NCBI GenBank assembly: GCA_964458715.1
Contig: CAYWJP010000001.1
Location: forward strand, 2,022 to 66,021
DNA: 64,000 nt
Source: an uncultured Bdellovibrionales bacterium
GTDB lineage: Bacteria > Patescibacteriota > Minisyncoccia > Moranbacterales > DUUL01
Direction of reading: 5' to 3'
Both the position numbers and the translations under genes were made by a program. This document shows positions 1,294 through 60,170 of this stretch, piece after piece. Position 1 is the stretch's first letter. Every line of letters starts with the position of its first letter. The notes beneath the pieces were generated by a model, which saw nothing but the letters and a program-made list of their open reading frames with translations, did no database searches and was not told the DNA's origin.

Positions 1294-1325
1294 TTCCGCC
1301 ATAGGCGGATCCGCCTATGGCGGAA
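1294..1325. promoter_or_regulatory. Perfect 32-bp palindrome between the GT2 and GT4 genes
   Basis: TTCCGCCATAGGCGGATCCGCCTATGGCGGAA is exactly self-complementary. No U-tract follows on either strand. Confidence 0.5.
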
Positions 1326-1350
1326 ACTTTACTAACTTTCTAAATAAATT

Positions 1351-2469
1351 ATGAAAATCTTATTCATTTCGCACTCTTTTCCTCCTATTGTAGGAGGGGT
1401 AGAAAATCAAAATTTTCAATTAGCTGAAGCGCTTAAAAAATCAGCTCAAGTTAGAATTATAAAAAATACTCGAGGAAAAATTTGGCTACCAATATTTGTT
1501 CCATTAACTTTTTTAAAAGCTTTCTTTCTGATGAACCGCTATGACGTTTGTTTATTAGGAAGTGGTGTTTTAGCTCCACTAGGAAGCGCCATAAGCTTTT
1601 TCCATCCAAAGAAAAAGTTTTTTTGTGTTACTCACGCCCTCGATATTATTTTTGCCGAAAAAAAGGGTTGGTTATCTAAAATTTATAAAACCGTAAACAT
1701 CCCTTCTCTGGAAAAAATGAACAAACTTTTTATGGTAGGAAATGCCACCATTGAAGAAGCGGTAAAATTGGGAATTAGCAAAAAAAAATGCAAATTTATT
1801 CCTAACGGAATTAACAAAGATGATTTAAAAGAAAAACACCTCCGAAAAGAACTTTCTCAAATATTCGGGAAAAATATTCAAGACAAGAAAGTGATTCTTC
1901 GCTTAGGACGATTTGTTCCCCATAAAGGAACCAGTTGGTTTATTGAAAATGTAATGCCTAAATTGCCTGAAAATGTTGTTATGATCGCCGCCGGTGGAAG
2001 AGTGGCTAAAAATACTGCTGGGGACAAAGATGATTTCCTTAATTCCGAAAAAGCTATTATTAAAAACAAACTAGAAAATCGAGTTCGATTATGCCCTACT
2101 ATCCCCCAAAAAGATTTAAAAATATTGCTAAACACTGTTGATCTTGTAGTATCTCCTAATCTTAAAATCCCCGGATCAATGGAAGGATTTGGAATTAATG
2201 CTATTGAAGCTGGCGTTTGCGAACGAATTGTTTTTGTTTCAAACATTGAAGGTCTATTAGATGCAGTTAAGGATGGAAAAAATGGAAAATTAATAGAAAG
2301 TGGCAACGAAAAAGCTTGGGTGAGTGAAATTAAAAAAATAATTAAGCTCAAGAAAAAGACCCTTTTAAAACAAGGTCAAGAAGCTGGTAAATATGTCGAA
2401 AAAAATTATTCCTGGAATAAAATTTCCAAGAAATATCTAAAGGAAATGAATAATACCATCTCCAACTAA
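1351..2469 (+). CDS. Family 4 (GT-B) glycosyltransferase
   Basis: EX7E-type motif (MEGFGINAIEAGVCERIVFVS) typical of GT4 retaining glycosyltransferases; 372 aa. Confidence 0.65.
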   Translation: MKILFISHSFPPIVGGVENQNFQLAEALKKSAQVRIIKNTRGKIWLPIFVPLTFLKAFFLMNRYDVCLLGSGVLAPLGSAISFFHPKKKFFCVTHALDIIFAEKKGWLSKIYKTVNIPSLEKMNKLFMVGNATIEEAVKLGISKKKCKFIPNGINKDDLKEKHLRKELSQIFGKNIQDKKVILRLGRFVPHKGTSWFIENVMPKLPENVVMIAAGGRVAKNTAGDKDDFLNSEKAIIKNKLENRVRLCPTIPQKDLKILLNTVDLVVSPNLKIPGSMEGFGINAIEAGVCERIVFVSNIEGLLDAVKDGKNGKLIESGNEKAWVSEIKKIIKLKKKTLLKQGQEAGKYVEKNYSWNKISKKYLKEMNNTISN

Positions 2470-2620
2470 CCACTGCCCACCAACTCTTGCAAATTTTAAT
2501 TTATACTTGCTTCAAAAAGTTCAGTGATACTATGACATCACTTCACTTTTTTTACCATCGTCTAAATTAAAATTTACCGTGACTTATGAGTAGTGGCTAA
2601 TTGAAAATGATATAAATAAA

Positions 2621-4555: not shown

Positions 4556-4557
4556 TT

Positions 4558-4953
4558 ATGAATAAAAATATTGCCATTTTAATAGTCTTAATTCTAACTT
4601 TTTTAACTTCTTACTTTTTATATTGGAAAGGAGAATTAGCCCTAGAGGATGCTGCTAAGGATTTTACTGTTTTAGCCTTCGAAAATACCAGTTTAGTTTG
4701 TGATTATAATTCTTTAACTTTCTTTATCGAGAATAATCTAGAAGAAGAACTTCCCTATCAAATTTCCATCAGCGCCGATGATAAAACGCTAGAGACTCTA
4801 GCAGTTTCAGTTTTGGCTCAAAATAAAAAACTAATCCAACCTAAATCAGAAACGCTAGAATTTCTATGCGCTCAATCTCAAAAAATCAAATATGAAGTTA
4901 TGATTGAGAATAAAACAAATAAACAATCTATCTATAAACTAATCAATCCGTAA
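4558..4953 (+). CDS. Hypothetical protein with an N-terminal membrane anchor or signal
   Basis: 131 aa with an N-terminal hydrophobic helix. Its ATG overlaps the upstream stop (TAATTATG). Confidence 0.35.
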   Translation: MNKNIAILIVLILTFLTSYFLYWKGELALEDAAKDFTVLAFENTSLVCDYNSLTFFIENNLEEELPYQISISADDKTLETLAVSVLAQNKKLIQPKSETLEFLCAQSQKIKYEVMIENKTNKQSIYKLINP

Positions 4954-4957
4954 ACTT

Positions 4958-6115
4958 ATGCTCAAGAAAAAAATTCTCCTTTATACACGACCAATCGTTC
5001 CGCCTTGGGATGAAGCCTCCAAAAATTTAGCTTATGACATTGCCATTAACCTGCCAAAAAATCAATTTGACATTACTCTTTTAACTCCTCGAAAAAACTC
5101 ATTCAATCAGCAATTAATCAAACAACACTCCAATATAATCCCTGAAGAAATTTATTCTTCAATCGATCTTAATTTAAAAGGAAAAATCAAATTATTAAGC
5201 AGACTATTCAAAACTAAATTAAACGCCGATCTAATTCATTTTCTTTTTACTCCAAGGTCAATTACGTCCCTCTTAGTTAGATTAAGATTAAAATTTAGTA
5301 AAATTAAGACTGTTCAAACAGTTGCTACTTTATCAAAAGAAAATCTAACTAATGCCAAAAAATTAAATAAAATTTTATTTGCCGATGTCGTTGTCGTTCA
5401 ATCAAAACATACCTTCGAAAAATTAAAAAATAAAACTATTAAAAATATAAAATTAATTTATCCAGGAATTAATTTAGAAAAATATAGACAGAAAAGAAAA
5501 GACGCCTCACTTTTGAAAGAATTAAAATTAAAAGATAGCGATTTTGTTGTTTTGTATGGAGGCGAGTACACTCGACTGAAAGCTATTGATGATATTTTAG
5601 AAGCCTTAAAAATACTATTCAACGAATACAAAGAAGTTGAAAATTTAAAATTCATTTTTGCTTGTCGATTAAAATCCAAGAAAGATAAAATCAAAAAAGA
5701 AGCTGTTATTAAAACTCTCGAAAAAGAATCTCTCAGAGACAAGGTTGTTTTTTTGGATACTTTTGCGGAAGTAGACAAACTTTACAACTTATCAAATATC
5801 AGTATTTTTCCTGTTCGTGAAATGGCTGGTAAGTTCGACATTCCCTTGGTATTAGTTGAATCGATGGCTTGCGGAAAACCGATTATTGTTTCCAAGTTAA
5901 AAAACTTGAAAGAATTAATCGGAAAAAATACTTATGGATTAGTTTGTAAAAGAAAATCTCCCAGAGATCTAGCTCAAAAAATATATCTTCTAAAAACTGA
6001 TAAAAAACTGTACAATAAAATAGCTGAAAATGCCTTAGTTTTTGTTAAAAATAATTTTGATATTAAGAAAAATATCAAAGAATACGATAATATTTATAAA
6101 GAATTACTCCAATAA
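4958..6115 (+). CDS. Family 4 (GT-B) glycosyltransferase
   Basis: C-terminal EMAGKFDIPLVLVESMACGKPII matches the GT4 EX7E nucleotide-sugar binding motif; 385 aa. Confidence 0.65.
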   Translation: MLKKKILLYTRPIVPPWDEASKNLAYDIAINLPKNQFDITLLTPRKNSFNQQLIKQHSNIIPEEIYSSIDLNLKGKIKLLSRLFKTKLNADLIHFLFTPRSITSLLVRLRLKFSKIKTVQTVATLSKENLTNAKKLNKILFADVVVVQSKHTFEKLKNKTIKNIKLIYPGINLEKYRQKRKDASLLKELKLKDSDFVVLYGGEYTRLKAIDDILEALKILFNEYKEVENLKFIFACRLKSKKDKIKKEAVIKTLEKESLRDKVVFLDTFAEVDKLYNLSNISIFPVREMAGKFDIPLVLVESMACGKPIIVSKLKNLKELIGKNTYGLVCKRKSPRDLAQKIYLLKTDKKLYNKIAENALVFVKNNFDIKKNIKEYDNIYKELLQ

Positions 6116-6119
6116 TCTA

Positions 6120-7613
6120 ATGTATAAAATAATTAAAAAGGGACCATTTCAAAATATAATGCAACCCAACGACTCGAAAAGCATTCCGGTTCATTTTAAT
6201 ATGAGCGATGAATTAATGCCGGGAGACGACAGTTATGAAAAATTATTGAATATCGCCAAAGACAAAAGAGTCTTTCATCATATTGCCGCCTTAACTGACA
6301 TTCATTCCAAACCTGGCCGAAAAAATCCAACTGGATCGGTAGTAGCGACCGAAAAAGAAATCCTCCCCCAGCTAACTGATTCAGCTCCTAACTGCGGAAT
6401 GCGTTTAATTAAAACGCCTTTTTTCAAAGGAGATCTTTCCGATCAACAATTGGATGATTTATTTAAAGAATACACCAGAACAATTCCTACCAGGACTTAT
6501 TTTGGCACTTATTTCTCCCATAAAGATATTCTGGAGATCTCGAAACGAGGCTCTGAACCCGTGCTAGAGCGATTTGATAAAAGCAAAAAAGAACTAGACA
6601 ACACCATGATGCGAGGAAATATGTTTGGTAATCAAAAAGTCACCAATCAAGAACTTTTTGAGTCTATTCCTTCTCTATTTTTTAGAATTGCCCAACTTCG
6701 CTTGGGAATTTTAGGAGAAGCTGGTAACCACTTCTTGGACTTGCTTTTAGTTGATGATATTATAGACCAAAAAACTGCTCATAAATTAGGAATTCAAAAG
6801 GATCAGTATGTTTTTCTTCTTCATACTGGATCAGGAATGTTTGGACAATATTCTAGTTATTTCTATATGCCTAAAAAGAAAGAGCACCTCAGTCAAAAAT
6901 TTATAAATATTCTGAGCCGAGCCACTTTTTTAAAAAAAGACATTGAATGGCACCAAATTTTACAGAAAAAACTACCTCTTTACGAAAATAGCGATGAACT
7001 TTGGGGAATAAAAGAAAATTCTGAATTATATAAACATTTTATGATTGCTAATCGAGCTTCGGCTAATCACGCTTTCGCCAATCGAACTTTGCTTCAAATT
7101 AAAATTGAACAAGGAATCGAAAAAATATTAGGGAAAAAACTGGAACTACCCATTGTCTATGATATGAGTCACATTACGGTAATGAAGGAAAATCATTACA
7201 ACAAGGATCTCTGGATCCACCGAAACGGCTCCGTCAGAGCTTTCGGTCCCAAAAGAATGAAAGGTATTAAAACCTATGAAGAAACTGGCGAACCAGTCTT
7301 CTTACCATCTTCAATGAGCACTCCGGTTTATCTCGGAGTAGGTACTGATGAAAATGAAACTACTTTCTTTTCTGCCCCGCACGGAACTGGGAAATCCAAA
7401 AATAAAACTTCGGAAGTACCCGTTGACAAAAACGCCTTAAAGACCAAAATGGAAAAAAGAAATGTTCGCCTTTACAACGCCAAATCTAAAGGAATTTTAG
7501 AACAAGATGCCTCCCATTATAAGGATGTAGAACCAGCAATTAAAGGAATGACTGAAAATGGGGTTATTAAACCAGTGGCTAAAATGCACCCCGTCTCAGT
7601 TTTAATGGCGTAG
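6120..7613 (+). CDS. rtcB: RtcB family RNA 3'-phosphate ligase
   Basis: All RtcB signature blocks are present: APNCGMRLIKT (Cys), EAGNHFLDLLLV (Asn-His), LLHTGSGMFGQ (His), ASANHAFANR, IVYDMSHI (His), HRNGSVRAF, PVFLPSSMSTPVYL, SAPHGTGKS (guanylylated His). The start is moved to the internal ATG at 6120 to avoid overlap with the upstream gene. Confidence 0.7.
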   Translation: MYKIIKKGPFQNIMQPNDSKSIPVHFNMSDELMPGDDSYEKLLNIAKDKRVFHHIAALTDIHSKPGRKNPTGSVVATEKEILPQLTDSAPNCGMRLIKTPFFKGDLSDQQLDDLFKEYTRTIPTRTYFGTYFSHKDILEISKRGSEPVLERFDKSKKELDNTMMRGNMFGNQKVTNQELFESIPSLFFRIAQLRLGILGEAGNHFLDLLLVDDIIDQKTAHKLGIQKDQYVFLLHTGSGMFGQYSSYFYMPKKKEHLSQKFINILSRATFLKKDIEWHQILQKKLPLYENSDELWGIKENSELYKHFMIANRASANHAFANRTLLQIKIEQGIEKILGKKLELPIVYDMSHITVMKENHYNKDLWIHRNGSVRAFGPKRMKGIKTYEETGEPVFLPSSMSTPVYLGVGTDENETTFFSAPHGTGKSKNKTSEVPVDKNALKTKMEKRNVRLYNAKSKGILEQDASHYKDVEPAIKGMTENGVIKPVAKMHPVSVLMA

Positions 7614-7658
7614 AACAAGTTAAAAAGTTTGAAAGTTTATAAAGTTAGAAAACAAGAT

Positions 7659-8267
7659 ATGAAACTAATAACAATTTCGGGATTAGACGGATGTGGAAAA
7701 ACCACCCAATTAGATTTGATTGAAAAAGAATTACAAAAAAATCATAAGGTGAAAAGATTTCATATGATTGGTTTTTCAATTGCCAACAAACTTATTAAAC
7801 AAAAAAAAGAGGCTAGAACTAGCAAAATTAAAGCCAAAACTAACGCCACCTGGGGAGCTATTTTAATGAGAAAAATTGCGATAGTAATTGATGTTTTTAG
7901 ATTTCGCTTATATTATTTGGTAAAATCTAGCGAACATAAAACTGACTATCTTATAATAGACCGCTATTTCTACGATCAAATAATTAATATTAAATATCTT
8001 GATAAGCAAAACGATTGGAAAAATAAACCTTTTTGGCAAAATTTTATCGAAAACCATTTAATCCAACCTAATTTAAAAATTTATTTAAAAATAACGCCTG
8101 AAAAAATTCTAGAGAGAAATGCTAAAATTGAACAAGGAAAACAATATCTCTTAGAAAAAAATGGATTGTACAATCATTTCTCTAAAAAATGGAAACTAAT
8201 CACCATCGACGGTAGTGGCAAGGAAAAAGAAATTCAACAGAAAATTAAAAAACAATTAAATGTCTAA
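7659..8267 (+). CDS. Thymidylate kinase-like P-loop nucleoside monophosphate kinase
   Basis: MKLITISGLDGCGKTTQ Walker A and IIDRYFYDQ resemble the dTMP kinase DRY/lid region. The track starts at a TTG at 7629; the ATG at 7659 is the preferred start. Confidence 0.55.
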   Translation: MKLITISGLDGCGKTTQLDLIEKELQKNHKVKRFHMIGFSIANKLIKQKKEARTSKIKAKTNATWGAILMRKIAIVIDVFRFRLYYLVKSSEHKTDYLIIDRYFYDQIINIKYLDKQNDWKNKPFWQNFIENHLIQPNLKIYLKITPEKILERNAKIEQGKQYLLEKNGLYNHFSKKWKLITIDGSGKEKEIQQKIKKQLNV

Positions 8268-9729
8268 TCTTTTTAAATCTTCAATTTTAATATCTTTATC
8301 CGAATTAGCTTTTAATTTTTCCGGGTATGTCACCCAAGCGCTAATTGGAAGAATGTTTACACCTGCTGAATATGGTCGTTTTAGCATTATAGTCACTTTT
8401 GCTACCATGATAATAGTTTTAATCGGCAGAGGAATACCAATTTCAACTAGTAAACATTTGAGTGAAATAAACAGAAAGGATTTTAATGGTCGTTACGCTA
8501 TCAAGAAAGCGGCCCTAACTATCCAAATTTTAATAATTGCAGTCATCTCTTTTGCTTATTTTATGTTAGCCTCTGTTTTTGCTAACATCCTAAAAGATCC
8601 TAGTTTGACTCCCTTATTTCAAATCTCTTCTTTGATTATTCCAACTTTTGCCCTGGCTAGTTTTTACGCTTATTATTTTACTGGAATTCAAGACTTTAAA
8701 AGATCTTCTACTTTAAAATTTCTACGATCAATTTTCAAAATAATTTGCATCGTCGGATTAGGTTATTTTTTCAAGTTAACTGGAGCTATTATCGGACAAG
8801 CATTAGCTCCCTTGCTAGTTTTCTTAAGTGGTTATTTGATGGATCCTTTTAATAAATTCAAACTAAAAAAACGAAAAGATTTCAAAAATGCTCCCGTTAA
8901 CATTGCTTTGATGAAAAAATTAAGTATTTTCGCTGGACCAATTGTAATCTTTATGCTTTTTTACGAATTCATGCTTTCAATGAACCTGTATTTCGTAAAA
9001 GCCCTTCTTGGTCAAGATGATTTAGTCGGAATTTACAGCGCTGCTTCTACGGTTAGTCGTATTCCTTATTATCTGTTTTTCTTTATGACGATTATCCTGT
9101 TACCAAAAATTTCCGAACTAATCACCAATAAGGAACACAATAAAACTAAAGAATTATTGGAAAAGGCTTTCAAGTATTTATTTATCACTTTAGTGCCCAT
9201 GACAGTTCTACTCTCATTGTTTTCCGAATCGGCTGTCCGTTTTTTCTACGGCAGTCGCTATACTTCGGCCGGTTCAATAATGAGTATTTTAATTTTTGGA
9301 TTTGCCTTTTTAACAGTTTTCTACATTATCACTTTTGTTTTAAATGGCGCTGGAAAAAACAAATTTCCCGTTTGGGCTTCAATAATCGGAACTATCCTAA
9401 ACGGAATTTTAAATTGGATACTTCTCAAAAGAATGGGCCTACCGGGATCAGCTATTGCCACTACCATAACGGCTTTCGTAATAATGATTTGGGCGCTTAT
9501 TTACTCTAACCAGAAAATTACTCATTTTATTAATATTTGGTCAATCATTAAATATTTATTAACAGGATTGTTTATATATCTTCTAGGGAGCCTGTTTTTC
9601 AGCCAAGGAAGATTTATTTTTATTTTATGGTCATTTCTATTGTTGATAATTTACTTCTTTATTATGATTCTTTTTAAAGAACTAAAAATCGACGATTGGA
9701 AATATTTAGTAAAATCTTTTAAGAAATAA
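8260..9729 (+). CDS. Wzx-like polysaccharide/oligosaccharide flippase (MOP superfamily)
   Basis: 489 aa with about 14 TM helices. Length, topology and position downstream of the GT genes fit a polysaccharide-biosynthesis flippase. Confidence 0.55.
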   Translation: MSNLFKSSILISLSELAFNFSGYVTQALIGRMFTPAEYGRFSIIVTFATMIIVLIGRGIPISTSKHLSEINRKDFNGRYAIKKAALTIQILIIAVISFAYFMLASVFANILKDPSLTPLFQISSLIIPTFALASFYAYYFTGIQDFKRSSTLKFLRSIFKIICIVGLGYFFKLTGAIIGQALAPLLVFLSGYLMDPFNKFKLKKRKDFKNAPVNIALMKKLSIFAGPIVIFMLFYEFMLSMNLYFVKALLGQDDLVGIYSAASTVSRIPYYLFFFMTIILLPKISELITNKEHNKTKELLEKAFKYLFITLVPMTVLLSLFSESAVRFFYGSRYTSAGSIMSILIFGFAFLTVFYIITFVLNGAGKNKFPVWASIIGTILNGILNWILLKRMGLPGSAIATTITAFVIMIWALIYSNQKITHFINIWSIIKYLLTGLFIYLLGSLFFSQGRFIFILWSFLLLIIYFFIMILFKELKIDDWKYLVKSFKK

Positions 9730-9793
9730 TTTTTAATTATCTTCTATTTGAGCTATAATAAAAATAATCAATTTTAATATTTCATAAAAACAA

Positions 9794-10837
9794 ATGCAAA
9801 AACATCCTCACTTTTTACTCTTTTTAATCATCCTGTCTGCCATCGGGACTTTCTTTGTAATGAAACCGTTTCTTTTATCAATTTTTCTAGCTTTTATTTT
9901 ATCCACCCTATTTAGTAAAACCAATAAAAAATTAGCCAAAAAATTAAATGGACACAAATCCTGGTCATCATTAATTATGTGTCTTTGGGTGATGCTAATT
10001 TTAATCATTCCATTTTTTATAATTACTGCGCTAATGATTTCTGAAGCGGATTCCCTAATCAAAGAAATGCAAAATAAAAATATTTCTTTTGACATTAGTA
10101 CCCTTAAAAATCTACCGATTGTGAATACTTTTAACTTAGATCAAACGTTACAATCGAACGAAGGAATCAGTCAAATAGCCAAGAGTACTCAAAATATCAG
10201 CAACTACCTATTCACCGCCATAAAAGCTGTTTATACCAGCGCTAGTAATTTTATTTTTATTTTAGTTGTTTGTTTTTTTGCTCTTTATTATTTTTTTAAA
10301 GACGGTGATTCAATTATCAAAAAAATAATGGATTTAAGTCCACTTCCTTCCAACCAAGAAAAAGAACTTTTTGAAAAATTTAACACTATGACTATTGCCA
10401 CCATTAAAGGAACTTTGATCATTGCCTTAATTCAAGGAATTTTAATGGGAATTACCTTTTGGATAGCCGGAGTTCAAGCTCCAACTCTATGGGGACTACT
10501 GACTGCTTTAATTTCGATTATTCCTCTGCTGGGCGCTTTTCTGATTTGGCTTCCGGTTGGTTTAGTTTTATTAGCTTTAAGCTATTATTGGCAAGGAATT
10601 TTTGTTCTAATTATAGGAGCGGTTATTATTAGTAGTATTGATAATTTTTTAAGACCGAAATTAATAGAGGGCCAAACTAGCCTACATCCATTATTAGTAT
10701 TTCTCGCCACAATTGGAGGAATTGTTTTTTTCGGGCCATTAGGTTTCGTAGTTGGACCAGTTTTGGTAACTTTATTAATATCATTATTAGAAATCTATCA
10801 AACGGGTCATGTTCAAAATCCCGTTCTTGAAAAATAA
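9794..10837 (+). CDS. AI-2E family transporter (PerM/YhhT-like)
   Basis: 8-TM protein with the characteristic C-terminal region LHPLLVFLATIGGIVFFGPLGFVVGPV. Confidence 0.65.
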   Translation: MQKHPHFLLFLIILSAIGTFFVMKPFLLSIFLAFILSTLFSKTNKKLAKKLNGHKSWSSLIMCLWVMLILIIPFFIITALMISEADSLIKEMQNKNISFDISTLKNLPIVNTFNLDQTLQSNEGISQIAKSTQNISNYLFTAIKAVYTSASNFIFILVVCFFALYYFFKDGDSIIKKIMDLSPLPSNQEKELFEKFNTMTIATIKGTLIIALIQGILMGITFWIAGVQAPTLWGLLTALISIIPLLGAFLIWLPVGLVLLALSYYWQGIFVLIIGAVIISSIDNFLRPKLIEGQTSLHPLLVFLATIGGIVFFGPLGFVVGPVLVTLLISLLEIYQTGHVQNPVLEK

Positions 10838-10856
10838 ATTATAAATAAAATAAATT

Positions 10857-11300
10857 ATGGAAATCAATTATTTATATATTCTAATCCCAGTTTTAGTCGG
10901 AGGAATAACTCAGATAACAAAATTTGCCATCTTCACCTACAGACACGGCTTACAATGGAAATATTTATTTGCTCACGGTCATATGCCTTCCACCCACAGT
11001 GCTTTCGTGGCTGCTTTGGTTATAACTGCTGGTCGCTCAGCCGGTTTTGGTAGTGGTGTCTTTTTGATCGCCTTCTCTCTTAGCATAATAATAATTGACG
11101 ACGCCTTAAGACTCCGAATGTACTTAGGTGACCAAGGCCGTTATCTAAATATGCTGATTGAAACCTTAAAAATGGACGCCAAGGAATTTCCCAAACTAAA
11201 AGAACGAGTTGGACACCGTTCTTCAGAAGTTTTAGTTGGAATAATTTATGGAATACTTTTGGCTAATTTATTCTTCTACCTTTTTTCAAAATTAAATTAA
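10857..11300 (+). CDS. Divergent PAP2 / YuiD family membrane protein
   Basis: GHMPSTHSAFVAALVITAG motif typical of the acid phosphatase/vanadium haloperoxidase-related (YuiD) family. Confidence 0.55.
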   Translation: MEINYLYILIPVLVGGITQITKFAIFTYRHGLQWKYLFAHGHMPSTHSAFVAALVITAGRSAGFGSGVFLIAFSLSIIIIDDALRLRMYLGDQGRYLNMLIETLKMDAKEFPKLKERVGHRSSEVLVGIIYGILLANLFFYLFSKLN

Positions 11301-11337
11301 ATCATTTAGAATATTTTTTTATCATTTCTGATTAAAT

Positions 11338-11781
11338 ATGCCAGAAAAAATTATAATCAAAAACGCCCCGATAGAAGACGTTGTATTTGTAAATTCAACA
11401 ATTACTGAATTTGATAAACCTTATAAAAAAGAATATTTTAAAGAAAGATATGAGGGTAAAGATAATTTAATAATCGTTGCTTATATCAGCAACAAACCTG
11501 TTGGTTATGTTGTTTGGTACAATCGAGATAATGATAATTCTTTCTATTGCTGGATGGCTGGTGTTAATCCCGAGTATAGACGTCTTGGTATTTTAAAAAA
11601 ATTAATGGATTATGGATTTAATTGGGCAAAAAATAAAGGTTATCAAAAAATAAAAATAAAAACGAGAAACAACCGACGTGAAATGCTTACATATTTAGTT
11701 AGATATGGCTTTCAATTTACAAATATAGTCCAATATCCAAATGTCGATGACAATAGAATCGAACTTGAAAAATCAACATAA
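11338..11781 (+). CDS. GNAT family N-acetyltransferase
   Basis: Motif A-like RRLGILKKLMDYGFNWAKNKGY in a 147 aa protein. Confidence 0.6.
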   Translation: MPEKIIIKNAPIEDVVFVNSTITEFDKPYKKEYFKERYEGKDNLIIVAYISNKPVGYVVWYNRDNDNSFYCWMAGVNPEYRRLGILKKLMDYGFNWAKNKGYQKIKIKTRNNRREMLTYLVRYGFQFTNIVQYPNVDDNRIELEKST

Positions 11782-14026: not shown

Positions 14027-14202
14027 TTTAAAAATATTATTATTCTAAATATTGTCAATATCCGCCTAGCACGACAGGGATTAGATATTTAAGTGTAGTT
14101 TGAGGAAAATTTAATCACGATTAAATCAGATTCTTCATCTCAATATTCTCTTAATATAACAGAAATCCTATATTTGAGCACAGTTGAAAAACACCAAGAA
14201 TT

Positions 14203-14310
14203 ATAAGTTTGAGTGCAATTCGAGGAAAAACCGGAGTTGTCGTCTGGGGCGTATGAATAATACAGCGAAGTCGACACGATGGTTTTAACAAAGAAGTGCG
14301 CCAAACTTAT
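14203..14310 (+). repeat. Family-1 structured intergenic repeat, copy A (a degenerate half-copy lies just upstream at about 14171-14200)
   Basis: Outer stem ATAAGTTTG/CAAACTTAT encloses the core TTTGAGTGCAATTCGAGG…GCGTATGAATAA…AACAAAGAAGTGCGCCAAAC. Ends 10 nt before the ruvA stop codon. Confidence 0.7.
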
Positions 14311-14319
14311 AGCTCTTGT

Positions 14320-14889
14320 CTATTGGCGCATGGATTTAAGGGCAAGCTTTATCCTTTCCGAAATATCTTCAATCCCACTTTCAACACTTTTCGACGCTTC
14401 CCTCGCCTCACTGATATTGTACCCCATTGACACCAAAGCTTCGATAACATCTTGATCACCTTGAGCAGTTTGTTGAATAGCAGCTGAAAAGTTTTTAATC
14501 TTATTCTGAAGCTCTAAAACTACTCTCTCGGCAATTTTCTTCCCAATTCCTGATACTTGAGTCAAAATACTTATATCACGATTAACAATAGCAGTTTTAA
14601 TCACATCCGGTGAGGCAATATTAAGAATATTCAAAGCTGCTTTTGGTCCAATCCCCGAGACTGAAATTAGCAACTCAAACAACTCCAATTCTCCTTGAGT
14701 TTCAAATCCAATTAACATTAGTTGGTCTTCTTTTACGTGAGTATGAATAAATAATTCCAAAATTTCCTGACTAGAAGCCTTACCAATAGTTGCTTCATTG
14801 CAAAAAACCTTATAACCCACGCCGTTAACGTCAACTACTAAATATCCCACTCCGAAATAATTCACTAATCCTTTTAATTTTCCAATCAT
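14320..14889 (-). CDS. ruvA: Holliday junction DNA helicase RuvA
   Basis: OB-fold N-terminus MIGKLKG, two helix-hairpin-helix motifs (GIGPKAA, GIGKKIAER), C-terminal domain III. Confidence 0.8.
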   Translation of the reverse strand: MIGKLKGLVNYFGVGYLVVDVNGVGYKVFCNEATIGKASSQEILELFIHTHVKEDQLMLIGFETQGELELFELLISVSGIGPKAALNILNIASPDVIKTAIVNRDISILTQVSGIGKKIAERVVLELQNKIKNFSAAIQQTAQGDQDVIEALVSMGYNISEAREASKSVESGIEDISERIKLALKSMRQ

Positions 14890-14898
14890 CTTTTTATC

Positions 14899-15031
14899 TT
14901 AATTTTGAATTTTAAATTTTGAATTTTGATTCAATTTAGAATGACTTAATTTATAATTTCAGTAATTTTTTAGAAAATTAATTCATTAAAAATTAGAATT
15001 TGATTCAAAATTCAAAATTTAAAATTAATTT
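14899..15031. promoter_or_regulatory. Large imperfect inverted repeat built from two AT-rich heptamer modules in the divergent ruvA/rpsT intergenic region
   Basis: Forward arm 14899-14952 (TTAATTTTGAATTTTAAATTTTGAATTTTGATTCAATTTAGAATGACTTAATTT) and reverse arm 14990-15031 (AAAATTAGAATTTGATTCAAAATTCAAAATTTAAAATTAATT), between divergently transcribed genes. Confidence 0.45.
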
Positions 15032-23669: not shown

Positions 23670-23858
23670 TATTGTTTAATTTAAAATTAAATTAAAAAAT
23701 TTCAAAGCTCAAATTATTTCAAATTGTTCCAAATAAAATTCAAAATCTAAAATTCGAATGACAAAATTTAGATTTTGAAAATTTTAATTTTAATCATTGG
23801 CGCTTATTTGATATTTGTAATTTTAAATTTGTGATTTACTTATAAAAAACTTTGTTTT

Positions 23859-25946: not shown

Positions 25947-25986
25947 TTCTGATTATTTAATTATTGTAAAATTAACCACTCAATAT

Positions 25987-26130
25987 TAGAAATTTATTAT
26001 TTGAGCAAAGTTCAAGGAAAAACCGAGCAATGCAACGCAATTTACTAAATTGGTAAATGAAGTAAATCGTGGAGGTGGCGCCTGCCCGCCTTTGGCGGGA
26101 CAAAGAAATTTGCCAAATAATAAATTTCTA
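25987..26130 (+). repeat. Family-1 structured intergenic repeat, copy B (with an internal insertion)
   Basis: 22-23 bp outer stem TAGAAATTTATTATTTGAGCAAA/TTTGCCAAATAATAAATTTCTA. Core TTTGAGCAAAGTTCAAGG…GACAAAGAAATTTGCCAAAT. Its terminal CTA is the complement of the upstream gene's TAG stop. Confidence 0.7.
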
Positions 26131-26445
26131 GCCTTCATACAAGTCTAAGACTTCGTCAAACGAAATAGGATCCCTTTTAAAAACATTACAAGCTTCCTCA
26201 TAGTCTAAGTCAGTTAAAATCCCCAAAGTAACGATATTATCATTATTTTGAAGACCTTTGCTAATAACTGCCAAAGAAGCACTGCGACAAAAATTACAGT
26301 TAACATGAACTAACATTGCATCTTTCTTGTTTTGAACAATTTTAATACTCTGTTTGCCGTATTTTCTACCGCAAATAGAACACTTCATCAAAAGATTAAC
26401 TTCATTCATAAGCTTGATATTAACAATTATTCCCCCTTTAGTCAA
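26128..26445 (-). CDS. Hypothetical Cys-rich (zinc-ribbon-like) protein
   Basis: CSICGRKYGK ... HVNCNFC pairs. The stop codon is part of the terminal stem of a family-1 repeat. Confidence 0.35.
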   Translation of the reverse strand: MTKGGIIVNIKLMNEVNLLMKCSICGRKYGKQSIKIVQNKKDAMLVHVNCNFCRSASLAVISKGLQNNDNIVTLGILTDLDYEEACNVFKRDPISFDEVLDLYEG

Positions 26446-27798: not shown

Positions 27799-27852
27799 AA
27801 AATTTTGAATTTTGAATTTTGAATTTCGATTCAATTTTCAATGATTTAATTC
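27799..27852. repeat. AT-rich heptamer-repeat module (opposite orientation) upstream of murG
   Basis: AAAATTTTGAATTTTGAATTTTGAATTTCGATTCAATTTTCAATGATTTAATTC is the reverse complement of the dcw-type module. Confidence 0.55.
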
Positions 27853-28147
27853 CCGCCTACTCGCCTCGATTCGACGAAGCGGGCCTGCAGGCAGATTCAA
27901 TGACCTAATTTTTTAAAATCATCTTTAAGCGACGTTTGTCATTAAATGGTGAATAAGAAAATTCTTCAAAAATAGTTTTTTTCTCAACAAAACGGTCTAA
28001 TGAGTTATCCACCCTGTATAAATAGCACTTCGTAATTTAACAGGGTAAAGAATATCTCCGCTAAAGGCGGACACAGTTTTGCACCCTAAAAACAATAAAA
28101 TAACCCCTTTCGAGGTTATTTTTGAATTTATATATAAAACACGTGGA

Positions 28148-28260
28148 CTTGGGAGGTTGAGTACAATTCGAGGAGAAGTTGAGTACCGAGCGAGATGGAC
28201 TTAATGGTCCATTGAGCGAGTAACGGAAACTTCGACAAAGAAATCTACCAAACTCTCAAG
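28148..28260 (+). repeat. Family-1 structured intergenic repeat, copy C
   Basis: Core TTGAGTACAATTCGAGG…GAGCGAGATG-GGAC..GTCC hairpin…CGACAAAGAAATCTACCAAAC. Imperfect outer stem. Ends 12 nt before the tuf stop. Confidence 0.65.
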
Positions 28261-28272
28261 TCTTAAATAGTT

Positions 28273-29466
28273 TTATTTGGTAATTTTAGTAAGAACACCA
28301 GCTCCTACGGTTTTGCCTCCTTCTCTAATAGCAAATCTCATTCCATCTTCCATTGCCACCGGAGCTCCTAATTTAATGTTCAAACTAACGGTATCCCCAG
28401 GCATTACCATCTCCACTCCTTCTGGCAAAATAACTTCACCAGTTACATCAGTAGTTCGAATGTAAAATTGAGGTTTATACCCTTTAAAGAAAGGAGTATG
28501 TCGTCCGCCTTCTTCTTTAGTCAAAATATAAACTTCACCTTCGAATTCGGTGTGAGGAGTAATACTTCCTGTTTTAGCTAAAACTTGACCTCGTTCAATT
28601 TCTTCTTTTTTGGTTCCTCGAAGAAGAATTCCGGCATTATCTCCGGCTTCACCTCGATCTAATGTTTTATTAAACATTTCGATTCCAGTAACGACTGATT
28701 TAGCGGTTGCTTTAATTCCAATAATTTCGATTTCATCTCCAACATTAACAACTCCTCGTTCGATTCGTCCAGTAACTACAGTTCCTCGACCTTCAATTGA
28801 GAAAATATCTTCGATTGGCAATAAAAATGGTTTATCAACATCCCTTTTTGGTTCTGGAATATTTTCATCAAGAGCATCCATTAATTCCATAATTGGTTTA
28901 ATGGCCTCATCATCTTTACTGGTAGCTTCTAAAGCTTTCAAGGCTGAACCTTTAATAACAATAGCATTTTCACCATCATATTTATATTGAGTAAGAAGTT
29001 CTCGAACTTCTTCTTCTACTAAATCAATCAGTTCCTCGTCATCAACCATATCAACTTTATTCAAGAAAACTACAATTTGAGGGACACCTACTTGGTAAGC
29101 CAATAAAATGTGCTCTCGAGTTTGTGGCATAGGACCATCAGTAGCAGAAACCACTAAAACAGCTCCGTCCATTTGAGCAGCGCCAGTGATCATATTTTTA
29201 ATATAATCAGCATGTCCTGGACAATCAACGTGAGCATAATGTCGCTTATCAGTTTCGTACTCAACATGAGCAGTCGCAATTGTAATTCCTCGTTCTCTTT
29301 CTTCTGGAGCTTTATCAATCTCTCCTACAGATTTACTTGAAGCCATTTTTCCCATTAAAGTCATGGAATGTAAAATAGCCGCCGTTAAAGTAGTTTTACC
29401 ATGATCAACATGACCAATAGTTCCTACATTTACATGGGTTTTACCCCGTTCAAATTTTTCACTCAT
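28273..29466 (-). CDS. tuf: Elongation factor Tu
   Basis: [19 protein letters not shown] GTPase motifs, 397 aa. Confidence 0.97.
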
Positions 29467-31835: not shown

Positions 31836-31970
31836 ATACTTAAAATTATATTTTATATACTTATATATTTTTTATAATGTAACTCATCTACCGATAGAAC
31901 CTGAATAAATTTAAAAAATTAAACAAAGCTTTTTATTTAGATCGTCTTTTAAATTAACCTCTTGAAAGCA

Positions 31971-32094
31971 ACAGAAATTAAATGTTTGAGTGCAGTTCGA
32001 GGCAAATTTTCAATTGCGTATGAGATGTGCTGAAATGGCACGTTGAAAAGCAACTGAAAATTTAACAAAGAAATGTACCAAACATTTAATTTCT
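31971..32094 (+). repeat. Family-1 structured intergenic repeat, copy D (best preserved)
   Basis: Perfect 17-bp outer stem CAGAAATTAAATGTTTG/CAAACATTTAATTTCTG. Core TTTGAGTGCAGTTCGAGG…GCGTATGAGATG-GTGC..GCAC hairpin…AACAAAGAAATGTACCAAAC. Lies between the rpsG stop and the fusA 5' UTR. Confidence 0.8.
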
Positions 32095-32099
32095 GACAT

Positions 32100-32567
32100 T
32101 TAGGCGAAGTGGGCAAAAGCTTTATTGGCCTCAGCCATTCGATGTGTATCTTCTCGTTTTTTCATAGCTGCTCCTTTTTTCTCAGCCGCATCCATCAATT
32201 CATCAGCTAATCGAATTGCCATTTTTTTTCCTTTTTTATTTTTGATAGAATCTTTAATCCAACGCATAGCTAAAGTAGTTCTTTTAATGCCAATAACCGG
32301 AACTGGAACCTGGTAATTAGCGCCACCGATTCTTCGTCCTTTTAATTCCATCAAAGGAGAAACATTTTTAATAGCTTGTTCAAAAACATTTAAACCGCCC
32401 CGATTAGTTCTTTTATGAATTTCATCAAAAGCATCATAAATGATTTTTTCAGCAACCGTTCTTTTTCCTTTTACTAATAAGTGGCCCACGAATCGACCTA
32501 CTAAAAGTGAATCATAAACAGAATCTGGCAGCCAATTTTTTTTGTAAATTTTATTCTTTCTGGACAT
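32100..32567 (-). CDS. rpsG: 30S ribosomal protein S7
   Basis: The S7 fold begins at MSRKNKIYKK...PDSVYDSLLV. The track ORF begins at an upstream GTG; the internal ATG at 32567 is preferred. Confidence 0.9.
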   Translation of the reverse strand: MSRKNKIYKKNWLPDSVYDSLLVGRFVGHLLVKGKRTVAEKIIYDAFDEIHKRTNRGGLNVFEQAIKNVSPLMELKGRRIGGANYQVPVPVIGIKRTTLAMRWIKDSIKNKKGKKMAIRLADELMDAAEKKGAAMKKREDTHRMAEANKAFAHFA

Positions 32568-32690
32568 GTTATTTAAATTTCTTAATATAATTTCTTGTTT
32601 ATAAATAAACACTCAACAACTAACATTCAACCTCCATTCAACTCTCAACTTCAAAACATTCAACTCCAGCAAAACTCATATTACGCAATA

Positions 32691-32813
32691 CAGAAATTAA
32701 ATATTCGAGTGCAGTTCGAGGCGAAATTAAAAATTTTATTGAGACGCACTAAATTGGTGCGGCGAAATAGAATTTTTGATTTCAACAAAGAAATGTACCG
32801 AATAGTTAATTTT
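32691..32813 (+). repeat. Family-1 structured intergenic repeat, copy E
   Basis: Same 5' end CAGAAATTAAAT, but the stem is changed compensatorily (ATTCG/CGAAT versus GTTTG/CAAAC in copy D). Internal hairpin GCGCAC..GTGCG. Lies between the rpsL stop and rpsG. Confidence 0.8.
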
Positions 32814-32817
32814 AAAC

Positions 32818-33234
32818 CTATTGTTTTTTAGGACGTTTAGTTCCATACCTAGATCTACTCTTAATTCGATTTTCAACACCAGCCGCATCCAAAACACCCC
32901 GAACTACTTGGTATCGAACACCAGGAAGATCTGGAGTACGACCACCTCTGATTACTACAATTGAATGTTCTTGCAAATTGTGCCCAACTCCTGGAATATA
33001 AGCAGTAACTTCCTTTCCGTTAGTAAGTCTAACTCTAGCAATCTTCCGAAGAGCAGAGTTTGGTTTTTTAGGACTAGTTGTACCAATTTTTATACACACC
33101 CCTCGCTTAAAGCAAGACGGATAATAAACTGGTTTATTCTTGATAGAATTAAAACCAAAATCCAAAGCAGTGGTTTTAGATTTTTTGACTACTTTTTTTC
33201 TGGGATTTTTAATAAGCTGGTTAATGGTCGGCAC
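32818..33234 (-). CDS. rpsL: 30S ribosomal protein S12
   Basis: MPTINQLIK ... [10 protein letters not shown] signature. Confidence 0.95.
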
Positions 33235-39914: not shown

Positions 39915-40050
39915 GATAATTGCCCGTTTAGGAATTTCTTTAAAATCATTCCAGGTTTTGAATTCGATCCATCTTTCCCCCTAGTAATACCGTTATATTG
40001 ATACTGTTCCTTAATTTCTAATTTTGAATTTTGAATGAATTTTTAATATC

Positions 40051-40141
40051 TGAATGTCTGAATTTTTAAAACTCCGTTTTAGTTTTAAAATTAAATCATT
40101 TGAAATTGAATCAAAATTCTAAATTCGAAATTCTAAATTTC
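40051..40141. repeat. AT-rich heptamer-repeat module (dcw type) between ftsL and ftsI
   Basis: GAATTTTTAAAACTCCGTTTTAGTTTTAAAATTAAATCATTTGAAATTGAATC followed by (AAAATTC/TAAATTC/GAAATTC) tandem heptamers. The same module occurs at 41584-41665 and 42186-42290. Confidence 0.6.
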
Positions 40142-41583: not shown

Positions 41584-41665
41584 CTGAATTTTTAATTTAA
41601 AAATTAAATCATTCAAAATTCGAAATTGATTCAAAATTCAGAATTCAAAATTCAAAATTTTAGTA
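41584..41665. repeat. AT-rich heptamer-repeat module upstream of rsmH
   Basis: AATTAAATCATTCAAAATTCGAAATTGATTCAAAATTCAGAATTCAAAATTCAAAATTTT; heptamer array GAATTCA AAATTCA AAATTTT. Confidence 0.6.
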
Positions 41666-42107: not shown

Positions 42108-42185
42108 AATTGCAAATTATTATTTTATCAATGGATTTCTATTTATTTTTGTTTGCAAAATTTTGAATTTTTAATTTTTAATTTT

Positions 42186-42290
42186 GAATGAATTTTTAAA
42201 ACTCCATTTTAGTTTTAAAATTAAAAAATTAAATCATTCAAAATTGAATCAAAATTCGAAATTCGAAATTCGAAATTTACTCTAAATAAT
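42186..42290. promoter_or_regulatory. AT-rich heptamer-repeat module upstream of mraZ (candidate operator/promoter region)
   Basis: GAATTTTTAAAACTCCATTTTAGTTTTAAAATTAAAAAATTAAATCATTCAAAATTGAATCAAAATTCGAAATTCGAAATTCGAAATTT. Contains the 10-bp inverted repeat TTTTAAAACT/AGTTTTAAAA and four tandem CGAAATT heptamers, 80-180 nt upstream of the mraZ start. Confidence 0.45.
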
Positions 42291-42733
42291 CCCTTTATAT
42301 AAAATGAGCTTTAAGTATAAACAAAACCCATAATCCCAACAGCCTCATTTTTCTTTCCCCACTTTTCACCACGCAATACCATTTTAAACCACCAGTCAAC
42401 CCTTGTCAAACATTTCTCTCCATTTTTCCAATTTTCCCTAAAAACTAATCAAAAAAATGGCTTATTAATGACATTCGCGACTGCGTCCGCCCTTGGCGGA
42501 ACACACCATTTAATTTCATATCCTGTTGAGTTATACACAATTTGTTAACAGTTCTTTTAAATTAAAATTTAAAAGAAGATTTAGGATTTAAGAACTGCTT
42601 CCGACTTGCCTACTGACCTTTTTCGTCGAATCAAGACGAACAGGCAGGCTTTAAAATCTCCAAATATCTCTTATTTAAAATAAAAACAGGGTTATCGATA
42701 TTGTCAACAACCCCGTCTCTTAATATACTTTCA

Positions 42734-45780: not shown

Positions 45781-45821
45781 ATATACAAAATACGATTAAA
45801 ACTCTTGGGGCTATTTGAGGT

Positions 45822-45931
45822 TTATGAGTTTGAGTAAAGTTCAAGGAAAATCCGAGTAGCGTATGAGATGTACTTGATGGTACATCAAAAAGCAACGGAG
45901 GATTTGACAAAGAAATTTGACAAACTCGTAA
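45822..45931 (+). repeat. Family-1 structured intergenic repeat, copy F
   Basis: Outer stem TTATGAGTTTGAG/GACAAACTCGTAA. Core TTTGAGTAAAGTTCAAGG…GCGTATGAGATG-GTAC..GTAC hairpin…GACAAAGAAATTTGACAAAC. Ends 4 nt before the stop of the 45936 gene. Confidence 0.75.
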
Positions 45932-45935
45932 GCCG

Positions 45936-46256
45936 CTACCTAAGCCCTAGTTGATTTTTAAGCTGGTCAGCCTCTTGTTTGGTCATTTGACCGGACTTAA
46001 CCGATTCGTCTAATTGTTTCAGAATTTTATCTTTCTCTTTCAAAATATTTTGCGGATTCATCATTTTCCGCATTGCTTCTTCTCGTTTAGATTGAGGCAA
46101 TTTCTTAAAAATTTTCAGAGCCCAACGCTCTTTTCTAGACAACTTTGAATCATCAACCTTTTCCAACATTTCATCCATTTTACCCATCATACCATCCACT
46201 TTTGGATTCTTAGATTGTTCATCATCATTTTTTTTACCAAAATTGAAAAATCCCAT
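45936..46256 (-). CDS. Hypothetical K/E-rich protein (106 aa)
   Basis: Low-complexity charged helical protein. Followed by a family-1 repeat. Confidence 0.35.
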   Translation of the reverse strand: MGFFNFGKKNDDEQSKNPKVDGMMGKMDEMLEKVDDSKLSRKERWALKIFKKLPQSKREEAMRKMMNPQNILKEKDKILKQLDESVKSGQMTKQEADQLKNQLGLR

Positions 46257-52257: not shown

Positions 52258-52455
52258 ATATAAATTGTTATTTAAAAAATATCAATAAATTCTAAATCCA
52301 AAATTTCAAATTCCAAATAAATTACAATTTTCAAAATCTCGATGCTCAAAAACTAGCTTCGAGAATGTTTTGAATTTAAAATATTGTTATTTGGTGCTTA
52401 TTTGTTATTTGTAATTTTAAATTTGGTGCTTATTTTCAAATTATTTAATTCAAAA

Positions 52456-59291: not shown

Positions 59292-59348
59292 AAAACAAGA
59301 TAATCACAAATATTAAATTAATTTAAAAAACTTCTGAATCTGTATGTA

Positions 59349-59415
59349 ATTTGAGGAAGATTCGATTCGCCGCGGCAAAGGAAAACCTGACAAAGAAGTG
59401 TGCCAAATTTGAAAG
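59349..59415 (+). repeat. Family-1 repeat, degenerate short copy G
   Basis: Retains TTTGAGGAAGATTCGA…TGACAAAGAAGTGTGCCAAAT. Lies 12 nt before the stop of the DnaQ-like gene. Confidence 0.4.
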
Positions 59416-59426
59416 TTTTGCCAATC

Positions 59427-60170
59427 TTATTTTAAATAGTGTTTTAAGGTAAATATCCAATCCTCGTCCGTTCCCTCTTCCTCTTTTGTTTTTTTCAACC
59501 AATTTAAGTACTGTCGATCTTTTTGCACAATATCCTCAACTCTCTCTCCAGTATATTTCCCAAAAGGAAATTTTTTAATTAGGACTGGATTAGATGAAAT
59601 ATCAATCATCCGACCGATGATTTCTTCTTCTGAGGCCTTTGGTGCTTTTTCTTTAGCAACCTTTAATAAATGATTAAAAATCGCTTCCAGGACTATCACA
59701 TCGCCTTCAGCGCTATGAGGGGCGACTTCAACGTCAACTTCATAATAATATCGTAGAAATTGCAGATTATATTCAGGAATTTCTTGTTCAGAATCTAAAT
59801 AACGAGCTAATCGCAAAGTACAAATAGATTGAGAGGTTTTTAAATCCTCGTTGCTTAACATCGCAATATCAAATTTAGCATTGTGAGCCACTAAAATATT
59901 ATCCGGCAAAATCTTTTCCAAGTTTTTGGCAAATTTACTCCCTTGAAAAGCCTCCTCCTTCTCTACTGTTTTATTGGTAATATGAGTAATGCTCATCGCT
60001 TTGACAGAAATAGGGATAGGTGGTTTGAAATTCTTGACTTCAATTTTTCCTTCATCCGCCGTAGCCTTGGCGAAAACGGATCTTTTTCTATAAGCCACTT
60101 GACAAAGCCGATCTTTTTCCAAATCATTCCCCGTTGTTTCCGTATCTAAAAATATTAATTTCTTTTTCAT
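59427..60170 (-). CDS. DEDDh 3'-5' exonuclease (DnaQ/epsilon-like) with a C-terminal extension
   Basis: Exo I LIFLDTETTGND and Exo III HNAKFDIAML motifs. Confidence 0.7.
   Translation of the reverse strand: MKKKLIFLDTETTGNDLEKDRLCQVAYRKRSVFAKATADEGKIEVKNFKPPIPISVKAMSITHITNKTVEKEEAFQGSKFAKNLEKILPDNILVAHNAKFDIAMLSNEDLKTSQSICTLRLARYLDSEQEIPEYNLQFLRYYYEVDVEVAPHSAEGDVIVLEAIFNHLLKVAKEKAPKASEEEIIGRMIDISSNPVLIKKFPFGKYTGERVEDIVQKDRQYLNWLKKTKEEEGTDEDWIFTLKHYLK

Follow-up and report, generated by a model that had tools for sequence, protein, structure and literature searches.

The 64,000-nt stretch of DNA analysed here (hereafter the window; contig CAYWJP010000001.1 of GenBank assembly GCA_964458715.1) carries seven copies of a palindromic element of about 125 nt, among them the one between rpsG and fusA (copy D, 31972..32095, + strand) on which a preliminary description of this DNA had centred. 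The element is probably a member of a new family of non-autonomous, full-length palindromic repeats, comparable to the Rickettsia palindromic elements (RPE), to ERIC and to REPINs (pairs of inverted repetitive extragenic palindromic, or REP, sequences), that is found across Patescibacteria and has a few copies in Neisseria weixii. Its folded structure is under selection; the selected fold is that of the + strand, which is antisense to the adjacent gene; and the element is an insertion that is gained and lost between related genomes. The preliminary description had set a structured element and a miniature inverted-repeat transposable element (MITE) against each other as alternatives. The element is both at once: it shows covariation, and it also shows gain and loss, decayed remnants and in-frame insertions, and so behaves as a mobile element and as a structured RNA.

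The element family, its fold and its folding strand

The family was searched for with a degenerate pattern made from the two conserved sequence blocks of the element (5' block TTTGAGTGCAGTTCGAGG; 3' block ACAAAGAAATGTACCAAAC) in one genome per species, which gave 64 loci. Nearly all of these belong to metagenome-assembled genomes (MAGs) labelled as Patescibacteria (CPR, for Candidate Phyla Radiation) or the Parcubacteria group (Moraniibacteriota, Kaiser-, Zambryski-, Doudna-, and Saccharibacteria); several element-bearing MAGs are labelled Bdellovibrionales or Gammaproteobacteria, and these labels may be wrong. The host genomes were examined as 8-kb pieces of MAGs, 530 kb of loci altogether. 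Across the pattern loci and the window a covariance model found 99 copies, two from N. weixii included, in about 35 Patescibacteria MAGs, with up to nine copies per MAG in the pieces examined and with lengths of 106–155 nt (typically about 125 nt). The complete genome of N. weixii is the sole occurrence found outside MAGs. The family is previously uncatalogued and undescribed: a scan of the whole window at Rfam gathering thresholds returned tRNA only; E-value scans against Rfam 15 with copies D and E and two GC-richer copies from another locus (L050) gave only generic hairpins far below threshold (miRNA precursors, Thr leader); a pattern scan of viral contigs and blastn against plasmid and phage records gave no match; and literature searches on such elements in Patescibacteria found no description.

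The ends of the element are sharp (Y-AGRAMTT ... AAKTYCT-R), and conservation is absent outside them. These ends always pair, yet only AGRAMTT and AAKTYCT are conserved, the next 5–8 bp varying between copies in a covarying manner. The element folds into one rod without branches, about 55 bp long, with 41 pairs in the consensus and a stem base of CCAAAC/GTTTGAG. The outer stem measures about 17 bp, and its middle is different in every copy; inward from it come UUUG/CAAA, which does not vary, a bulged A, five base pairs of helix that include a conserved U-G, a purine–purine pair, and UUC/GAA; these are followed by an asymmetric loop (GAGG facing ACAAA), another variable stem, GA-rich loops toward the tip (of which there are three or four subtypes), and an apical stem that is nearly always GUAC/GUAC. 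Conservation thus centres on the apical GUAC stem and on two internal loops, both asymmetric and rich in purines: GAG-UGCA-R-UUC-GAGG opposite ACAAA-GAA-R-UGUG-CC, and the GA-rich loops at the tip. K-turn, sarcin-ricin, and T-loop readings of these loops were weighed by eye; the key positions are invariant.

Compensatory changes (both sides altered, pair kept) occur in 31 of the 41 consensus pairs. Covariation was also tested on a MAFFT alignment that had not been fitted to the structure, with 500 shuffles for comparison. Standard pairs occupy 92.0% of the cells, versus 71.0% in the shuffled alignments and 32–43% when the partners are slid by 1–3 columns; double changes are found in 721 cells, versus 236 in the shuffles; and none of the 500 shuffles attains the observed value on any covariation measure. 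Because pairing and double changes exceed those of all 500 shuffles, the folded structure is under selection, as had been claimed. Outer stem and apical hairpin do covary, as previously pointed out, and aligning 70–99 copies makes the signal much stronger; it equals in strength the covariation of genuine RNA families.

The strand that bears this fold could be told from the pairs themselves. In columns 26/122, 46 copies have U-G and 23 have U-A; columns 27/121 are G-C (26), A-U (25), or G-U (19), never A-C; columns 30/118 swap G-A (46) with A-G (19) and are never Watson-Crick. Over all pairs G-U stands at 184 against 62 for A-C (138 against 62 when the conserved wobble is left out), and the conserved loops are purine-rich on the + strand. 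With RNA parameters the + strand is the more stable one in 86 of 92 copies (mean −45.0 vs. −35.2 kcal/mol, p = 5e-16); with DNA parameters this is so in 89 of 92. The selected fold is thus on the + strand, antisense to the adjacent gene, and the view of the preliminary description, that the element is a part of the mRNA beginning just after the stop codon, places it on the wrong strand. The excess of G-U over A-C is present in copies with an opposite-strand neighbour (141 vs. 46) and in copies with a same-strand neighbour (30 vs. 16); since the asymmetry is the same in antisense and sense copies, it is a property of the element and not of the host transcript. Nor is it a by-product of mutation, because the local mutation bias (+ strand GC skew of about −0.25) would be expected to favour A-C over G-T on the + strand. 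The folding strand could be RNA or single-stranded DNA, and the energy asymmetry, which appears with both parameter sets, cannot tell the two apart.

Copies in the window, placement and insertion

Run unfiltered over the entire window, a covariance model made from 70 copies gave exactly seven significant matches, all on the + strand, with scores of 111.9 to 53.7 bits, and thereby returned the seven copies listed in the preliminary description; five of them score 111.9 to 95.6 bits, the long copy B 58.3 bits, and the degenerate copy G 53.7 bits. The conserved blocks are equally real: at no more than 3 mismatches the 3' block has seven matches in the window (0.03 expected from shuffles) and the 5' block six (0.01 expected), all on the + strand.

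Copy A (14196..14317; model match 14189–14323, 95.6 bits; −47.9 kcal/mol on the + strand vs. −35.9 on the − strand) ends 3 nt before the stop of ruvA (14320–14889, − strand; RuvA by Pfam), which adjoins it. On the far side of copy A from this stop lies a decayed remnant, A0 (14069..14188, + strand; model score only 9.5 bits), which retains the 5' block TTTAAGTGTAGTTTGAGG at 14088–14105 with 3 mismatches and is without a stable fold. Copy B (25988..26130; model match 25983–26135, 58.3–64.5 bits) is about 20 nt longer than the other copies, the extra length being a nested GC-rich mini-hairpin, CCGCCTTTGGCGG, at 26086–26098; the last three bases of its stem, CTA, are the complement of the TAG stop of a 105-aa gene (26128–26445), as had been observed before. 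Copy C (28144..28264; model match 28137–28270, 111.9 bits) is located in the 3' untranslated region (UTR) of tuf (28273–29466, − strand; EF-Tu by Pfam), past the stop codon and ahead of the intrinsic terminator that ends the EF-Tu transcript; a terminator scan placed this terminator just beyond the copy (28097..28122, − strand; a stem of 11 pairs and then ATTGTTTTTA), so that the EF-Tu mRNA is expected to include the element in reverse complement.

Copies D and E stand in neighbouring spacers of the str operon. Copy D (model match 31966–32100, 107.2 bits; −52.2 kcal/mol on the + strand vs. −42.7 on the − strand) ends 4 nt from the stop codon of rpsG (S7; 32100–32102); copy E (32692..32814; model match 32685–32820, 110 bits; −46.3 vs. 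−27.4 kcal/mol) lies between rpsL (S12; stop 32818–32820) and rpsG. Copy F (45817..45936; model match 45810–45942, 107.8 bits; −42 vs. −26.8 kcal/mol) abuts the stop of a 106-aa gene (45936–46256) situated downstream of a sigma-70 gene (neighbours by Pfam). Copy G (59327..59419; model match 59320–59425, 53.7 bits) stands where two genes converge, its end 8 nt short of the stop of a gene for an RNase T/ExoX-like exonuclease (59427–60170; Pfam); it had been described, at 59349–59415, as degenerate, and it does have an internal deletion, no stable fold, and the lowest significant score. The fold z-scores of six window copies range from −5.2 to −9.1.

All seven window copies end 0–9 nt from the stop of a minus-strand gene (adjoining stops, copies A to G: 14320, 26128, 28273, 32100, 32818, 45936, and 59427), which bears out the adjacency to stop codons that had been reported. 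The genes concerned encode, according to Pfam, RuvA, EF-Tu, S7, S12, the RNase T/ExoX-like exonuclease, and two small proteins without known family. In the wider family, 47 of 71 copies have the stop of a convergent gene between −4 and +10 nt of their 3' end, and about 15 of these 47 close their stem with CTA, TTA, or TCA, the complement of that very stop codon. On the opposite side the next gene is 7 to >400 nt away, and it is because of this loose spacing that the element can be said to be set against the stop codon and not merely within the spacer.

The single orientation reported earlier holds within the window, where it is partly explained by nearly all genes being on the minus strand; it does not hold at scale, for of 94 copies 56 have a 3' neighbour on the opposite strand and 14 one on the same strand, the other 24 being unclear. 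Antisense orientation is thus a strong bias (about 80%) and not a rule. Sense-oriented copies are real, as between rpsF and ssb, and tend toward places where skew suggests lagging-strand genes; GC-skew comparisons are ambiguous as to whether orientation is set by replication. At one locus (L042) two copies of opposite absolute orientation are each antisense to their own gene. Host genes, identified by eye from translations, include those for S10, L10, L7/L12, S12, S7, L3, EF-Tu, RpoC, NusG, SecY, ATP synthase, FtsZ, and GyrB; read in this way, they are diverse and at the same time rich in highly expressed genes.

Signals of transcription at a fixed distance from the element were not found. In the 75 nt upstream of 68 copies the information content is at most 0.45 bit per position, without a promoter at a fixed distance, and promoter-like matches in the region are not above those in shuffles (33 vs. 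25.6 ± 4.5). The 12 nt past the hairpin hold 3.8 T when read as the + strand and 4.3 when read as the mRNA, roughly the level of an A+T-rich genome; there is no U-tract after the hairpin on either strand, no position exceeding about 0.5 T. Reading the element as an intrinsic terminator was rejected, given the missing U-tract and the separate, true terminator that follows copy C; an independent small-RNA gene is not favoured, there being neither a promoter of its own nor a 3' end signal at a fixed distance; and an outer stem derived from, or complementary to, its flanks in the manner of a guide is not convincing, the longest match averaging 6.04 against 5.83 ± 0.11 in shuffles.

That the element is inserted, and is gained and lost between related genomes, is seen at the junctions on either side of rpsG. 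Eighty metagenomic loci around S7 were fetched, and the best 56 were scanned with the covariance model. Both the S12/S7 and the S7/EF-G junction are occupied in relatives with 94% and 92% S7 identity; a relative with 81% identity has an intact copy at one junction and a decayed copy at the other; and in the 53 more distant loci of the 56 scanned neither junction has an element. The junction of copy D (S7/EF-G) is occupied in L012, L065, and L066, that of copy E (S12/S7) in L012, L065, L066, and L067. Empty S7/EF-G junctions measure 9 nt (L071) and about 50 nt (L072), versus about 260 nt in the window. Where a decayed and an intact copy stand together (L066, L067, and A0/A in the window), the intact one adjoins the stop codon. 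Among the ten most similar pairs of copies, seven are at non-homologous loci, five of these seven in different MAGs. Exact-protein look-ups for empty sites at strain level found nothing with EF-Tu and only the same arrangement with S12.

About 3 of 94 copies lie inside long open reading frames (ORFs). One (L054, 3164–3295, sense) is in frame inside TsaD, the ORF reading through the element; another (L031, 2332–2466) is in frame inside tRNA-dihydrouridine synthase (Dus), in a reading frame identical to that of the TsaD copy; a third and less secure case (L042, 3495–3629, antisense) is inside a probable PMT_2-type membrane protein, to which it probably contributes about 45 residues in the antisense frame. 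The TsaD and Dus copies have an in-frame peptide in common (..NLS[AE]VRG...FDKE[MI][RH]QIN..) and add roughly 45 residues to each protein. Solved homologues lack the inserted segment: residues 244–319 of the TsaD query face residues 218–236 of the chain, and residues 90–150 of the Dus query face residues 83–87.

Further observations concern copies outside and repeats inside the window. In L065, whose S7 is 94% identical, two copies (1219–1352 and 1967–2100), one in the S12/S7 and one in the S7/EF-G junction, are about 95% identical, whereas the window copies at the same two junctions differ in their interior; the likeness of the L065 pair suggests gene conversion or replacement between neighbouring copies. 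The N. weixii locus (L062) has two diverged, inverted copies, 3511–3645 (− strand) and 6881–7009 (+ strand), which bracket priA and dsbC and lie between convergent core genes (sulP/priA and dsbC/tsaD); each comes after an uptake-sequence hairpin terminator, 23–36 nt from the convergent stop, and one of the two, the weaker, was added by the covariance model. In the window, gene strand changes from + to − at about 11.7 kb (1–11700 vs. 11783–64000); + strand GC skew, close to 0 up to this switch, is about −0.25 after it, and the first part (1–11700) has no copy of the element. A second, unrelated palindromic family of about 125 nt has runs of the heptamer AATTTTG on one arm and the complement (CAAAATT/ATTCAAA) on the other (14901–15027, 27801–27856, 40006–40140, 41607–41660, and 42159–42278; intergenic or promoter regions, e.g., ruvA–rpsT). 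The GC-rich mini-hairpin CCGCC-N4-GGCGG occurs five times in the window against 0.41 expected (two at 1296–1323, one each at 26086–26098 within copy B, 28058–28070, and 42487–42499). A 73-nt, A+T-rich direct repeat (23774–23846 and 52368–52440; 74% identical) is present in two intergenic regions, and a tRNA gene lies at 63790–63875.

Explanations considered

If the element is a non-autonomous palindromic repeat, as we think probable, its folded single strand (RNA or single-stranded DNA) would be recognized by a trans-acting protein through the conserved asymmetric loops and the G-U, and this protein would copy the element, move it, or act on it. Targeted insertion, or survival of the least harmful arrangement, may have produced the bias in placement and orientation; the favoured arrangement would keep the strongly folding strand out of the mRNA and off the strand most often exposed as single-stranded DNA. 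The strongly folding strand would then be the template strand, and the mRNA would bear a weaker hairpin, with C-A mismatches and pyrimidine loops, right after the stop codon. From the literature on E. coli REP sequences, a very stable hairpin just behind a stop codon is expected to disturb termination. That the mRNA would carry the weaker, reverse-complement hairpin, in a 3' UTR or an intercistronic spacer, is proposed because the EF-Tu terminator lies beyond copy C; once inserted, this hairpin would probably act like other 3' hairpins, as a barrier at the mRNA 3' end or as an RNase III site, and the element may be retained for that effect.

Several observations weigh against so simple a mobile element. 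No mobilizing enzyme was found: the 531 neighbouring ORFs cluster into housekeeping families only, with no cluster of transposases, integrases, or reverse transcriptases, and the 530 kb of loci hold no unpaired half-elements bracketing an ORF as an autonomous parent would. The flanks of 71 copies have no target-site duplication, no conserved dinucleotide outside the closing Y-R pair, and no target motif. Near-identical copies are absent within a genome (identity 84% at most and 54% on average, with pairing still at 92%), a divergence unlike that of an active MITE or REPIN population and more like that of an old, individually constrained RNA family. Changes at paired positions in the ten closest pairs comprise 40 double changes from Watson-Crick to Watson-Crick, 24 between Watson-Crick and G-U, 9 between Watson-Crick and A-C, and 11 mismatches; three orthologous pairs have 8 double compensatory changes and 8 between Watson-Crick and G-U, versus 2 A-C and 6 mismatches. 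This pattern points to selection on copies in place, which would not be foreseen for an element that is purely selfish, or else to gene conversion among the copies. The tight distance of 0–10 nt to the stop codon, finally, has no mechanistic explanation.

A more far-reaching proposal, which we put forward as a tentative and rather doubtful one, is that each genome maintains roughly a hundred copies individually, as structured RNAs or single-stranded DNA hairpins that stand antisense at gene 3' boundaries and are read by one conserved protein through the purine-rich loops. They would serve a genome-wide policing of antisense or read-in transcription, or mark gene ends, and would have spread by insertion near stop codons, for which there is no known precedent.

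It is unlikely that the element is primarily a cis-element of the host mRNA, that is, a hairpin of the reverse complement in a 3' UTR or intercistronic spacer that blocks 3' exonucleases, marks an RNase III site, or slows termination, the last since the terminating ribosome covers the start of the hairpin with its footprint. In E. coli, REP sequences have effects of all three kinds (3' exonuclease protection, RNase III processing, and effects on termination). Such a role would fit the 47 of 71 copies placed 0–10 nt after a stop, the many highly expressed hosts (the ribosomal proteins, EF-Tu, RpoC, NusG, SecY, and ATP synthase of the by-eye list), the position of copy C inside the expected EF-Tu transcript, the compensatory changes between orthologous copies, and the stability that the minus-strand hairpin still has (mean −35.2 kcal/mol). 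The selected fold, however, is on the other strand: in the mRNA sense, 46 of 70 copies have a C-A mismatch in place of the U-G, and pyrimidines replace the purines of the loops; the asymmetry is not flipped in sense-oriented copies. A U-tract is lacking on either strand, some copies lie within ORFs, and a generic hairpin needs no core that is invariant across classes of Patescibacteria.

The alternative that takes the + strand at its word, namely a structured RNA family transcribed antisense to the neighbour gene and serving as a protein-binding scaffold at the gene's 3' boundary, is likewise improbable. Such an RNA might stop or mark antisense or divergent transcripts before they reach the gene, or form a handle after which comes sequence antisense to the 3' end of the gene. 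The conserved G-U beside a bulged A, the G-A/A-G swap, the tandem G-A loops, and the number of G-U pairs, well above that of A-C, are what it would lead one to expect, as are copies that are old and diverged and nevertheless 92% paired, orthologous copies that change by compensation, and a fold whose 3' end abuts the gene end. Against it stand the lack of a promoter or terminator signal at a fixed distance, gain and loss between close relatives together with the commonness of decayed copies, the copies that are inside ORFs or sense-oriented in operons such as rpsF–ssb, and an outer stem unrelated to its flanks beyond chance (6.04 vs. 5.83 ± 0.11). Both this and the mRNA cis-element overlap with domestication of a palindromic mobile element.

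Very improbable is an attC-like recombination site of single-stranded DNA, a hairpin of the antisense strand after each ORF in which a recombinase reads unpaired bases: the position directly after the stop codon and at times overlapping it, the similar length, the variable stem with conserved unpaired bases, and a folding strand antisense to the gene are all reminiscent of attC, but the flanks consist not of cassettes but of housekeeping core genes from conserved operons (str operon, dcw cluster), the gene order S12–S7–EF-G is conserved across relatives, no integrase gene is among the neighbours, some copies are within ORFs, and GTTTGAG/CCAAAC at the base of the stem departs from the attC core consensus GTTRRRY/RYYYAAC.

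A non-autonomous palindromic repeat of this kind matters for several reasons. Patescibacteria genomes are about 1 Mb in size and are regarded as streamlined, and the window still holds one copy per 9 kb; if this density applied genome-wide, the element would be among the most abundant non-coding features of these organisms. How full-length palindromes such as RPE and ERIC are mobilized is a decades-old question, and here a well-defined invariant core and a clear folding strand should make it feasible to find a partner protein by phylogenetic profiling and to test it in vitro. Because the element widens spacers of the str operon and adds residues to TsaD and Dus, it is also relevant to protein annotation and modelling; the covariance model lets annotators mask or label its copies.

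Comparison with known systems

In common with attC sites the element has its position after an ORF, a variable sequence with conserved folded features, and a folding strand opposite to the coding strand; it differs from them in having no cassette genes, no integrase among its neighbours, no fitting core motifs, and neighbours that are ribosomal, cell-division, and repair genes. The omega-RNA or right-end RNA of IS200/IS605 elements was considered and rejected: the element is a single rod, has no match to an omega-RNA in Rfam, and has no TnpB or IscB gene nearby.

Correia/NEMIS, ERIC, and RUP elements are, like the present one, short, non-coding, and multicopy, and form stable hairpins in transcripts. 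Classical MITEs can be substrates of RNase III or RNase E and can alter the stability of neighbouring mRNA (PMC10969869). They have terminal inverted repeats conserved in sequence and usually a TA or other target duplication; in the present element conservation is limited to seven bases at the base of the stem, with covariation in the rest, and the flanks of 71 copies show no target duplication.

REP sequences and REPINs come closer. They too are extragenic hairpin repeats at gene 3' ends with long persistence and vertical inheritance, their structure is thought to be recognized in single-stranded form, and they have neither classical terminal repeats nor target duplications. A REPIN, however, consists of two inverted short REPs around a spacer and occurs in many identical copies per population, whereas the arms of the present element bear different conserved blocks and identity within a genome is at most 84%. 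No RAYT, the Y1 transposase that mobilizes REP and REPIN elements, was seen among the ORF clusters of the 8-kb MAG pieces, none of which is transposase-like.

The closest likeness in kind is to the Rickettsia palindromic elements, which are full-length palindromes of 100–150 bp in a reduced genome, located between genes and in frame inside unrelated housekeeping genes, whose products gain a peptide segment (PMC10969869). The present element is palindromic, measures 106–155 nt, folds into a long hairpin, resides in reduced host genomes, and is found in frame inside the unrelated genes for TsaD and Dus, to which it adds a peptide segment; by this analogy, it displays the in-frame insertion that is the hallmark behaviour of RPE. 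The likeness is one of kind, in a different host phylum. The element differs from RPE in that only about 3 of 94 copies are in ORFs, the main site being 0–10 nt after a stop codon in antisense orientation, and in having a core that is conserved over several classes of Patescibacteria and into a Neisseria.

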